From: Promethearchaeota archaeon | GTDB lineage: Archaea; Asgardarchaeota; Hermodarchaeia; Hermodarchaeales; Hermodarchaeaceae | Reading direction: 5' to 3' | DNA: 24,535 nucleotides | Assembly: GCA_048938295.1 (NCBI GenBank) | Contig: JBHLMI010000033.1 | Coordinates: 1 to 24,535 of the forward strand | Shown here: positions 22,281 through 24,535 of the stretch, piece after piece | Layout: every line of letters begins with the position of its first letter | Position numbering within the stretch: the first letter of the stretch is position 1 | Translations under genes and position numbers: made by a program | Notes under the pieces: model-generated | Databases searched by the model: none | The model's input: only the letters and a program-made list of their open reading frames with translations | Told to the model about the DNA's origin: nothing

Positions 22281-24026
22281 ATGACACGAATCAAACTCAT
22301 GCCACTTACTCTATTGGCCTTTCTCCTCATCATGTTCGCTAGCCCGTTTATACTCACACAACTTCCTACAACAGCTGGCATGTCAAACAGTACTGCTCTT
22401 TCGCATCGGTCGAGTCCTATGAATTATGATTTCCGTATCCTCAACGAAACCGTGCAGGTCCTCCCCCAAATTGATGCTTCAGCGATTATCAATTATTCCA
22501 TCACCTTTGAAAACTATGGCACCGATTTCGACTACATCGATATCGGCTTGCCGAATTCCTATTATGTGCTTTCCAGTTTCCGCGCCTATTGGTCTCTCAA
22601 CAATGCACCCTATGTTGAACTGAGCGTCGCGACATCGGAGGCAGTTGACATCGGCATCGAAATCTTCATCCCACCCGCTCTCCGACCCGGAAACGGGGAA
22701 AACGGGACAATCATTGCTTGGGGCAACCAACAGCGCATGGTCTATCTTGACACCGATCCTGCAACTCCTGGATATGTTGGGTACGAATTTGTTCCAACCT
22801 GGTTCGGGTCCAGCTATAACCGTGGGACCGATTACCTCGGATGCCACCTTCACTTCCCCAACGGGTTCAACAATGGTACCCTCGCTAAATACCACTACAC
22901 CGCACCCACAACCCATTACTGGACAAACACTAACCTCGTCTACCTGTGGGAATATACTAACCTCGCCAACTACCAAGGACTTCCCCACGGCATCAGCTTC
23001 CCCTATGATGAATCCTACATCACCACTTACTTCACCACAGGAGGCGGTATCGATTGGGGCAACATTTTCGAAGAATACTTCGATATCATCATATTTGGCG
23101 TCATCGCCATTATCATCTTCGGTGCCTGCTGTCTCAGCATTACCCGAAGCGTCCGAGCAGGGGGTACCGCTGGTGGCCTCGTCAAACGCGGCTATCTACC
23201 CCCCGCCGTGAAAGTCGAAGCGTTGGGAGTTCGTCGTGGCCTCACGGTGGTAGAAGCGGCGGTGCTCAACGAAGTTCCGCTCAACCGCGTGTTCACCATG
23301 ATCGTCTTCGGCCTCCTCAAAAAGGAGCTTATCACCATCCAACGCGAAGGGAAAGCCAAACCCACCTTTCACACCAACCAGGCCACCATCGCCAACGCGG
23401 CGAGTAGCCAGGGCCGCTTCCACTATTATGAGCGCCTCTTCATCAAAGCCATCACCCCCCAAGGCAACCTTGACAAACCCGCGGTCCGCACCATGCTCAA
23501 CACCCTCATCAAAACCACGGCCCGCAAACTCGAAGGCTACTCCCGCACCGACACCAAAGCCTTCTACACCCGCATGATCGACCAAGCCTGGCGCCAAATC
23601 GGCCAAGCCACCACCCCCGACGCCCAAGTCACTGCCATCAATGACTACGCCGAATGGCTCCTCCTCACCCCCGACTACGACCACCGCATCAAACCCTACC
23701 ACCACTACTACGTCCCCGGCTGGTACTGGTGGTGGATCTGGGCCAGCCACCCCCGCCCCCACACCCTCACCCCCACCATCCCCGCCCCCACTATCCGCCC
23801 CACCACCGCCATCACCCTCACCGACTTCGCCAACGCCACCGTCACCGGCACCCAACACTTCGCCAACAACGTCGTCACCGGCTTCCAAAACCTCGCCAAC
23901 CAAATCGCCACCGCCTTCCGCCCCCCACCCCCACCACCCCCCCGCAGCAGCTTCAGCGGCCGCAGCTGCGCGTGCGCTTGCGCCTGCGTATCTTGTGCGT
24001 GTGCATGTGCCGGAGGAGGTCGTTAA
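22281..24026 (+). CDS. Membrane protein of DUF2207-like architecture with Pro-rich linker and Cys-Ala repeat tail
   Basis: Signal/anchor helix, aromatic beta-rich domain with N-glycosylation sequons (NST, NET, NYS, NGT x2), TM at ~270-290, GLTVVEAAVL motif, WYWWWIW, P7, SCACACACVSCACACAGGGR. Family call is from architecture only. Confidence 0.8.
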   Translation: MTRIKLMPLTLLAFLLIMFASPFILTQLPTTAGMSNSTALSHRSSPMNYDFRILNETVQVLPQIDASAIINYSITFENYGTDFDYIDIGLPNSYYVLSSFRAYWSLNNAPYVELSVATSEAVDIGIEIFIPPALRPGNGENGTIIAWGNQQRMVYLDTDPATPGYVGYEFVPTWFGSSYNRGTDYLGCHLHFPNGFNNGTLAKYHYTAPTTHYWTNTNLVYLWEYTNLANYQGLPHGISFPYDESYITTYFTTGGGIDWGNIFEEYFDIIIFGVIAIIIFGACCLSITRSVRAGGTAGGLVKRGYLPPAVKVEALGVRRGLTVVEAAVLNEVPLNRVFTMIVFGLLKKELITIQREGKAKPTFHTNQATIANAASSQGRFHYYERLFIKAITPQGNLDKPAVRTMLNTLIKTTARKLEGYSRTDTKAFYTRMIDQAWRQIGQATTPDAQVTAINDYAEWLLLTPDYDHRIKPYHHYYVPGWYWWWIWASHPRPHTLTPTIPAPTIRPTTAITLTDFANATVTGTQHFANNVVTGFQNLANQIATAFRPPPPPPPRSSFSGRSCACACACVSCACACAGGGR

Positions 24027-24057
24027 TAGACCTGCGCATATTAAGGATATTAGCCGT

Positions 24058-24120
24058 CCTGCGTTCCTAGGGTAATACCGTAATTTCGTATGGAGAATTA
24101 TTTATAGTTGGAACGCTAGG
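24058..24120. repeat. Inverted repeat (CCT-GCGTTCC / GGAACGC-T-AGG) around an AT-rich core with TATA-like TTATTTATA
   Basis: Arms 24058-24067 and 24110-24120 pair with one bulge; TATA-like element at 24098-24106. Confidence 0.6.
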
Positions 24121-24146
24121 CTGTAGGCGGAGGTTATGGAGGCATC

Positions 24147-24535
24147 GTGGCACCGCGGCGATTCATTGCGTCTTTGTTCCTGTTCGTGGCCCTGGTTTGG
24201 GGAGGAGTTGGTCTTCTTCATCTTTCAGGGAGTGTCTCATCGGTTGGAGCGGTGGAGCCGCCCTCGTTGCGGAGTCCTGTGAATTATGATTTCACGGTGA
24301 ACAATGAAACCGTGCAGGTGTTCACAGAGACCGATGGGTCGGTGACCATCAACTATTCGATTACCTTCACCAATTATGGCACCGACTTCGACTACATTGA
24401 CATCGGGTTTCCCAATGACTACTATAATCTGGGTAGCGTGACGGCGTATTGGTCGCTTGAAGGGGCGCCTTTTGTCGAGCTGACGGATATTGATCGCTCA
24501 GCCTACATTGCGATCGGGGTGGAAATCTTTGTCCC
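24147..24535 (+). CDS. Tandem paralog of 22281..24026, truncated by the window edge (absent from the ORF track)
   Basis: GGAGG at 24138-24142, GTG 24147; MAPRRFIASLFLFVALVWGG...SPVNYDFTVNNETVQV...INYSITFTNYGTDFDYIDIG...AYWSL...GVEIFV aligns with SPMNYDFRILNETVQV...INYSITFENYGTDFDYIDIG...AYWSL...GIEIFI. Confidence 0.9.
   Translation, partial: MAPRRFIASLFLFVALVWGGVGLLHLSGSVSSVGAVEPPSLRSPVNYDFTVNNETVQVFTETDGSVTINYSITFTNYGTDFDYIDIGFPNDYYNLGSVTAYWSLEGAPFVELTDIDRSAYIAIGVEIFV

Follow-up and report, generated by a model that had tools for sequence, protein, structure and literature searches.

A kilobase-scale strand-composition flip at a putative LAGLIDADG homing site, away from the chromosomal origin, in a Promethearchaeota genome

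We analysed a 24,535-nt stretch of DNA (the window), which is the whole contig C52 (JBHLMI010000033.1) of a Promethearchaeota archaeon genome (GCA_048938295.1; G000 hereafter, with its other contigs named C1, C39, C47 and C62). Near the right-hand end of the window, the composition of the forward strand switches abruptly from C/A-rich to G/T-rich at the 3' end of a membrane-protein gene (gene 1), which is followed on the same strand by the beginning of a tandem paralogue (gene 2). A sequence-only reading of the window had noticed this flip and, together with an inverted repeat in the spacer between the two genes, had taken it for a candidate initiation or unwinding site. We show that the flip is a conserved, kilobase-scale strand asymmetry anchored at one site, the left edge of an 81-nt block covering the Cys-rich tail of gene 1 (the Cys-tail block), and, judging from gene content in relatives, that a free-standing LAGLIDADG gene has its insertion point at this block in the genus. 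The features of the locus are as follows:

22281-24026, plus strand: gene 1, encoding a 581-amino acid (aa) membrane protein, with a 5'-to-3' gradient of C-ending codons
23421-23960, plus strand: saturated C/A zone, codons 381-560 of gene 1
23954-23964: flip centre, with the cumulative GC-skew minimum at 23954 and the keto-skew minimum at 23964
23956-24036, plus strand: Cys-tail block (stop -70 to stop +10), presumably the target of homing or insertion; coordinates carried over from the relative G001 by homology
24027-24146: intergenic spacer, 120 nt, 45% GC (the genome mean), otherwise ordinary
24061-24116: inverted repeat of the sequence-only reading, with arms GCGTTCC and GGAACGC
24147-24535, plus strand: 5' part of gene 2, the tandem paralogue of gene 1, truncated at the contig end

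The G000 assembly comprises 66 contigs and 2.52 Mb, with 45.8% GC and an estimated completeness of 91.6%. The organism encodes actin according to Pfam, and gelsolin-like and small-GTPase genes are present as judged by eye from translations. The closest relative is G001 (89% aa identity); G003, G004, G006, G010, G012 and G014 are further relatives, and G021 is a distant one. The gene 1 product has an N-terminal signal or transmembrane segment, a transmembrane segment in the middle, a Pro/Thr/His-rich linker and a C-terminal CACACACVSCACACAGGGR tail, and it matches no family in Pfam or NCBIfam. The Cys codons of the tail are four TGC followed by three TGT, just as had been counted before. Gene 2 is 63% identical in amino acids to gene 1 over 87 aa. 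Its remainder was not found in G000, where tblastn with both paralogues returned no further copy, and a search of metagenome contigs with the gene 2 fragment returned one short contig of 67% identity and nothing extending past 24535.

We defined the flip size D as the jump in keto skew, (G+T-C-A)/N, between the two flanks of a site, using 400-nt flanks as the standard and 1000-nt flanks as a repeat. The flip in C52 is real and is the strongest in the 2.5-Mb assembly, its D of 0.68 (400-nt flanks) being the largest value found, compared with a genome-wide standard deviation of D of 0.095. Its centre, which precedes the gene 1 stop codon by 62-72 nt, is located about 100 nt to the left of the inverted repeat, in agreement with the earlier placement of the switch to the left of the repeat. 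When silent sites are sorted by degeneracy into fourfold, two-fold Y (pyrimidine-ending) and two-fold R (purine-ending) sites, the following frequencies are obtained:

Gene 1, codons 1-200: fourfold C 0.37, fourfold G 0.17, two-fold Y C 0.51, two-fold R A 0.67
Gene 1, codons 201-380: fourfold C 0.57, fourfold G 0.15, two-fold Y C 0.75, two-fold R A 0.76
Gene 1, codons 381-560: fourfold C 0.92, fourfold G 0.02, two-fold Y C 0.93, two-fold R A 0.94
Gene 2, 129 codons: fourfold C 0.21, fourfold G 0.50, two-fold Y C 0.46, two-fold R G 0.67
Genome: fourfold C 0.27, fourfold G 0.17, two-fold Y C 0.42, two-fold R A 0.64

In the saturated zone codon positions 1 and 2 are C-rich as well, local GC reaches 0.66 as against 0.46 for the genome, and the skew decays on the left over about 2 kb. 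On either side, the strand with its 3' end towards the site is driven to C, then to A, and the strand with its 5' end at the site to G, then to T. The third positions of the first 60 codons of gene 2 (9 A, 10 C, 24 G and 17 T) match the figures of the sequence-only reading exactly. The four homologous codon pairs that it had cited as differing in the same direction all exist (V60 GTC/GTG, S73 TCC/TCG, G89 GGC/GGG and A102 GCC/GCG); however, all 26 synonymous differences between the paralogues give only 15 versus 9, which is not significant alone.

The flip has a similar offset in G000, G001 and G003, from stop -60 to stop -62, and in all three genomes its centre is the left edge of the Cys-tail block. 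Upstream synteny is conserved across the genus, and every orthologue of gene 1 has a frequency of C at third positions (C3) of about 0.55 and a similar gradient. Since contigs from two runs of one study, possibly of the source sample, bridge positions 23652-24529, there is no breakpoint at the flip, and the flip is not an assembly artefact. Separately, assemblies repeatedly break within the extreme C-rich tract (window 23549-23766; aa 487-531 of the orthologue in G006, G010, G012 and G014), and Logan contigs also fragment in this tract and all stop near 24510-24529. These breaks in gene 1 are probably due to a weakness of sequencing or assembly in poly-C or low-complexity sequence, or to strain variation. 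We also observed that two 8-bp palindromes, GCGGCCGC and GCAGCTGC, overlap exactly at the flip centre (window 23955-23968), where AGCTGCGC recurs in most relatives; the site is a possible endonuclease target core.

Throughout the assembly, flips of this polarity are in large excess: 25 C/A-to-G/T flips versus 5 of the opposite polarity with 400-nt flanks, and 18 versus 4 with 1000-nt flanks, the polarity of a flip being invariant under reverse complementation. The 29 gene pieces aimed at the 25 flip centres have a third-position keto skew of -0.34 on the coding strand, whereas the 26 pieces aimed away from them have one of +0.26 (genome, -0.03 +/- 0.13). Silent-site skew tracks position relative to the site, regardless of the coding strand, which bears out the earlier claim that gene orientation cannot explain the flip and that it is a feature of the DNA itself. 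As the sign of the skew depends on position and fourfold C rises steeply from 0.37 to 0.92 within a single gene, translational selection and transcription-coupled bias are excluded as the main cause.

Downstream of gene 1 the relatives vary. The spacer and the beginning of the tandem paralogue are common to G000 and G001, whereas in G003, G004, G006, G010 and G012 a gene of 420-530 aa is found 50-1200 nt past the gene 1 stop; in G001, such a gene lies instead behind a second copy of the Cys tail, on its contig C56. All six relatives with data (6/6) carry this gene behind a Cys tail, either that of gene 1 or that of the tandem paralogue, and the locus shows a presence/absence polymorphism at one precise point, with the endonuclease gene in five relatives and the paralogue in G000 and G001. 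Sequence searches with the G003 protein were uninformative, with a weak HTH_23 match only in Pfam and nothing in a profile search of PDB or in NCBIfam, and therefore a fold search was needed to identify it. Its AlphaFold model has a predicted local distance difference test (pLDDT) score of 81, and Foldseek matched the model to I-DmoI (TM-score 0.60-0.67), PI-SceI, I-Tsp061I, I-SceI and WhiA. The predicted fold thus points to a free-standing LAGLIDADG homing-endonuclease gene behind the Cys tail.

The copies convergent with the host gene retain both motif Asp residues (...VSD... and ...DGDG...), and two copies in G004 and G010 lie on the host-gene strand:

L022 (G004, contig C125) 842-2098, minus strand: host-strand LAGLIDADG copy
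L017 (G010, contig C42) 307-1506, plus strand: host-strand LAGLIDADG copy

Both have lost the two motif Asp residues and show no skew; from their sequences they look like decaying copies, that of G004 standing beside an intact convergent one. The two 81-nt tail copies of G001, which span stop -70 to stop +10 and are 89% identical with nothing alike outside the block, are located one at the end of gene 1 and the other ahead of the convergent LAGLIDADG gene. In G003, the convergent endonuclease gene occupies the place of the paralogue in G000 and G001, and the G/T bias extends to about +2.4 kb, from the minus-strand endonuclease gene into a plus-strand ATP-binding cassette (ABC) transporter gene. 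A mirror decay of the bias to the right, which the sequence-only reading had proposed to look for, is visible here, the skew having fallen to +0.04 by 2.4-3.2 kb.

Two further loci allow a comparison. The only family member in G000 (Pfam LAGLIDADG_3, 26.2 bits versus a cut-off of 22.5) lies at C1:966-2552, convergent with a GTPase gene; the two stop codons are 70 nt apart, and the skew minimum lies between them, at C1:2609. With D = 0.45, this flip is the third strongest with 1-kb flanks, and it is an independent replicate of the endonuclease-linked flip within G000. In G021, the homologue of gene 1 is 28% identical and keeps a CACACA...GGGR tail. It shows neither C bias nor a flip, and no such endonuclease gene lies within 1.5 kb of it; it is a natural negative control. 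As to the tail itself, we observed that its alternating Cys-Ala pattern ending in AGGGR (window 23967-24026) is kept in this homologue, L013 (G021:C38), although G021 belongs to another family of the phylum and has an AT-rich genome. Since the tail is kept at such divergence, its sequence conservation argues that it is a selected peptide feature and, likewise, a stable DNA target.

A hidden Markov model (HMM) of the endonuclease family detected a single clear member in G000, and this family therefore does not explain the other flips. Pfam searches with ten flip-adjacent proteins returned known host genes and one LAGLIDADG match only. One of the other flip regions is of interest in its own right. 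At C62:16878-18734(-) (L030:4878-6734), an open reading frame of 618 aa with a weak HTH_31 match only in Pfam changes its third-position G from 0.10-0.17 to 0.5-0.78 at about codon 240, and two flips at C62:18029 and C62:18866 bracket about 840 nt of neutral composition, as if a young insert sat in the middle of an older flip.

To the left of gene 1, two small proteins with Cys motifs are encoded at 21419-21802 and 21899-22264, with weak matches to DUF7559/DUF7575 and TackOD1/DUF2321; the one at 21419-21802 has a raised C3 (0.38), and the left gradient may extend over about 2.5 kb. Farther upstream, the window carries a eukaryote-type topoisomerase IB gene at 18833-20584 (Topoisom_I_N, Topoisom_I and Topo_C_assoc), whose synteny with a penicillin-amidase gene and an orotidine monophosphate (OMP) decarboxylase gene is conserved. 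An Rfam search of 23500-24535 gave just one sub-threshold match, to sR47 (E = 0.68).

The inverted repeat on which the origin interpretation leaned is indeed present, with GCGTTCC at 24061-24067 and GGAACGC at 24110-24116, but it is at chance level and unconserved. A perfect inverted repeat of at least 7 bp occurs in 16% of shuffles of the 120-nt spacer (322/2000), and the GCGTTCC heptamer is not enriched genome-wide (250 seen versus about 231 expected). In G001, the arms read GTGCTCC and GATACGC, both changed without a compensating change. In contrast, the TATA-like TTTATA at 24101-24106, the Shine-Dalgarno GGAGG at 24138-24142 and the GTG start at 24147 that it precedes are all conserved in G001. 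As these elements are conserved and the arms are not, the spacer looks like a promoter, and its stretch of about 40 nt with about 70% AT, which contains the TATA-like box, is more simply read as part of one. The proposal that the arms are origin recognition boxes (ORBs) around an unwinding element is not supported, and there is no match to the ORB core GTTCCAGTGGAAAC with three or fewer mismatches in 23.9-24.5 kb; the nearest such matches in C52 are at 7149, 10926, 15169 and 18878.

The elements of an origin are found elsewhere in the genome. The three Cdc6_C matches in G000 are on C47 (two) and C39 (one) and none is on C52, in agreement with the earlier remark that the window holds no orc1/cdc6, and no orc1/cdc6 occurs within about 19 kb downstream in the syntenic G003 (whiP was not searched for). 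The exact core GTTCCAGTGGAAAC occurs once in the genome, at C47:69978, where it is followed by AAAGGGGAG; copies with one mismatch are located at C47:69395 and C47:69781 (opposite strand), and a looser ORB-like box at 70879. Two of the three close copies have G-rich tails, AAAGGGGAG and GAAGGGGGGAG. This cluster surrounds an AT-rich tract directly upstream of the orc1/cdc6 gene at C47:71143-72378, and by these sequence elements C47:69395-70900 is predicted to be the canonical archaeal origin of the genome. A second orc1/cdc6 gene is located at about 81.7-82.9 kb of C47 and a third at about 31 kb of C39, and the loci L024 and L025 lie near the C47 origin. The C47 origin has a mild flip of like sign, with keto skew going from -0.09 to +0.21, and the skew over 10 kb on large contigs is weak, about +/-0.1.

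We somewhat favour the explanation that the flip is a site-anchored mutational scar of break and repair at a LAGLIDADG homing site. According to this model, the site would be broken repeatedly by an endonuclease encoded nearby or in other copies of the chromosome, and each repair would resect the 5'-ended strands and rebuild them by recombination-primed synthesis, which would start at the site and proceed outward over up to 1-2 kb. These rebuilt strands, that is, the fill-in or nascent strands of synthesis-dependent annealing or break-induced replication, would be error-prone and transiently single-stranded, and would acquire G (and T). Over many cycles, silent sites would become saturated, and the unconstrained linker would be pushed to its composition rich in Pro, Thr, His, Ala, Asn and Gln. 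Mutations are known to arise in the nascent single-stranded DNA of break-induced synthesis (PMC9262586). Cytosine deamination on the resected 3' tails was considered as the source and rejected, as it predicts the opposite polarity; the model must therefore place the bias on the rebuilt or nascent strands. Any other local start of DNA synthesis would account for the pattern just as well, and this is why a faint version of the mark is seen at the true origin. The earlier term initiation site is not supported in the sense of ORBs and unwinding, and would survive only in the looser sense of a start of break-induced repair synthesis.

Several observations weigh against break and repair as the explanation. 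The classical signature of resected ends, C-to-T on 3' tails, has the opposite polarity. A fourfold C frequency of 92% is beyond simple transitions, so that transversions to C or a biased mismatch correction must be invoked, and the local increase in GC from 0.45 to 0.66 is a hint that GC-biased conversion contributes as well. Correction of heteroduplexes biased by a T/G glycosylase would account for the GC rise and the C/G skew and not for the loss of G on the C-rich strand; we rejected it as the cause and keep it as a possible second component only. The skew on the right does not peak next to the junction in G003, G001 (C56) and G006, but 0.8-1.6 kb away from it. At the G000 site there is no visible adjacent endonuclease gene, the contig ending 510 nt to the right, and the link of the endonuclease to this site is drawn from the relatives, which are kin, so that six out of six does not mean six independent events. 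Finally, cleavage of the tail block by the endonuclease is putative, as is co-conversion of the flanks at the block, for which the pair of 81-nt tail copies in G001 is indirect evidence.

The other explanations have to account for the same observations. We give almost no credence to an Orc1/Cdc6-dependent origin at C52, with the GCGTTCC arms serving as ORB-like boxes on either side of an unwinding element and the flip arising from replication-linked mutation bias. The negative-to-positive polarity fits, as the sequence-only reading had stated, and so do the intergenic location with its AT-rich stretch and the weak flip of the same sign at the real origin. However, the repeat is at chance level and unconserved, the ORB cluster with its orc1/cdc6 gene is on C47 instead, and neither the window nor the 19 kb downstream in G003 holds an initiator gene. 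Nor does the skew extend on the scale of a replichore: it fades within about 2 kb on the left, and in G003 within about 2.4 kb on the right; the cumulative minimum in C52 is a kilobase-scale one among about 25 such flips; and the large contigs show weak skew over 10 kb. The C52 flip is not an Orc1/Cdc6-dependent chromosomal origin. A mosaic structure, in which horizontal transfer or chimeric assembly would have brought in gene 2, or else the 3' half of gene 1, from a compositionally different donor, is very improbable. It would agree with the high local GC (0.66 versus 0.46), with the variable gene behind the tail and with a contig end only 510 nt away, but the gradient is smooth without a step and is kept throughout the genus, also in G001, where the spacer and the beginning of gene 2 are shared as well, contigs of two runs bridge the site, and 25 sites have a like mirror-image polarity.

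Codon selection, in which gene 1 would be a highly expressed gene with optimal C-ending codons and a Pro/Thr-rich tail next to an ordinary neighbour, so that the flip is just a gene boundary, is improbable as well. A C3 above 0.5 is also found in actin (Pfam) and, by eye, in SecY-, Spt5- and RadA-like genes, and the bias is kept in the orthologues; yet genes aimed away from flips are G-rich at silent sites, the bias climbs from background to 92% inside one gene and is missing from the G021 homologue, gene 2 is not ordinary (fourfold G 0.50 versus 0.17 for the genome), and the 25-to-5 excess in polarity is left unaccounted for. Unlikely, but to be taken more seriously, is a local start of DNA synthesis or unwinding that is independent of the endonuclease, the LAGLIDADG gene having merely settled in a fragile site. 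Such a start might be R-loop-primed synthesis, recombination-dependent replication or strand displacement from a nick, with the exposed 5'-ended strands deaminated as at an origin. The polarity is as at the true origin, and the G-rich non-template strands of genes aimed away would favour R-loops. On the other hand, we found no site-specific initiator, nickase or repeat; the tie to an endonuclease gene is tight both here and at C1:2609; and the homologue without a nearby endonuclease gene (G021) has no flip.

These results bear on how skew is used. Local skew flips are routinely read as origins, and the strongest flip of this genome is not one; skew-based origin calls in archaeal metagenome-assembled genomes need the support of ORBs and orc1. 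For this Asgard genus, we propose tentatively, as a possibility short of an even chance, that homing sites and other site-specific recombination sites are recurrent starts of break-induced synthesis, leaving a kilobase-scale scar of origin polarity that can fix 92% fourfold C and reshape a protein. The present locus contributes the strongest flip, a polymorphism of occupied and unoccupied sites, an endonuclease-free homologue as a control and a true origin for comparison. If the break-repair explanation is true, flips would be a sequence-only record of recurrent DNA breakage and resynthesis in uncultured Asgard archaea, including which strand is rebuilt; tests of how active selfish endonucleases are, and possibly of recombination-dependent replication, would become feasible; and hot spots of cleavage, even empty ones, could be mapped from sequence alone. 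This would also suggest that recombination-dependent initiation is frequent enough in these archaea to prevail locally over ordinary mutation, and mutation pressure, rather than selection, would determine which codons are used and even which amino acids make up a linker.

Skew flips at homing sites or in Asgard genomes were not found described in our full-text literature searches, and the locus is best compared with known systems that share parts of the pattern. Expression-linked codon bias resembles it in that some housekeeping genes (actin by Pfam; SecY- and RadA-like genes by eye) are rich in C-ending codons, but the bias here depends on position and reverses its sign across the site. In vertebrate mitochondrial DNA, exposure of single strands produces gradients in silent-site composition; as here, the change is graded with distance from a fixed start of synthesis and one strand is G/T-rich, but there is one unidirectional, replication-tied gradient per genome, whereas here there are many bidirectional gradients on a kilobase scale. 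In the archaeal oriC of Pyrococcus and Sulfolobus, ORB or mini-ORB boxes flank an AT-rich unwinding element beside orc1/cdc6. The C52 site shares with it the negative-to-positive skew and the intergenic location, and the oriC of this genome at C47:69.4-70.9 kb has a weak flip of the same sign, but the C52 site lacks ORB boxes, an initiator gene and a conserved repeat. It also extends over about 2 kb and not over a replichore, has about three times the amplitude of the true origin, and is one of about 25 such sites.

The seg and mob genes of phage T4, such as that for SegB, are free-standing homing-endonuclease genes with co-conversion of flanking host sequence (PMC2330249). Similarly, the LAGLIDADG gene is found directly behind a conserved host 3' end, is present or absent and in either orientation among relatives, and has some degenerate copies, and the host tail is duplicated. 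The present case differs in that cleavage and homing are putative, in that the protein has extra N- and C-terminal helix-turn-helix (HTH)-like domains as in WhiA, and in the compositional flip, which, as far as our searches reached, we did not find reported for T4-type systems. Strand-coordinated mutation clusters at double-strand breaks, and those from the mutagenic nascent single-stranded DNA of break-induced replication in yeast (PMC6786661, PMC9262586), stem from single events in the laboratory or in tumours, whereas here we see a near-saturated shift of composition over evolution, and the clusters on resected 3' tails have a polarity opposite to that of the C52 flip. In both, however, the asymmetry switches its sign at the break, or at the site, and fades with distance, and the polarity of the C52 flip fits damage or errors on strands synthesised outward from a break.

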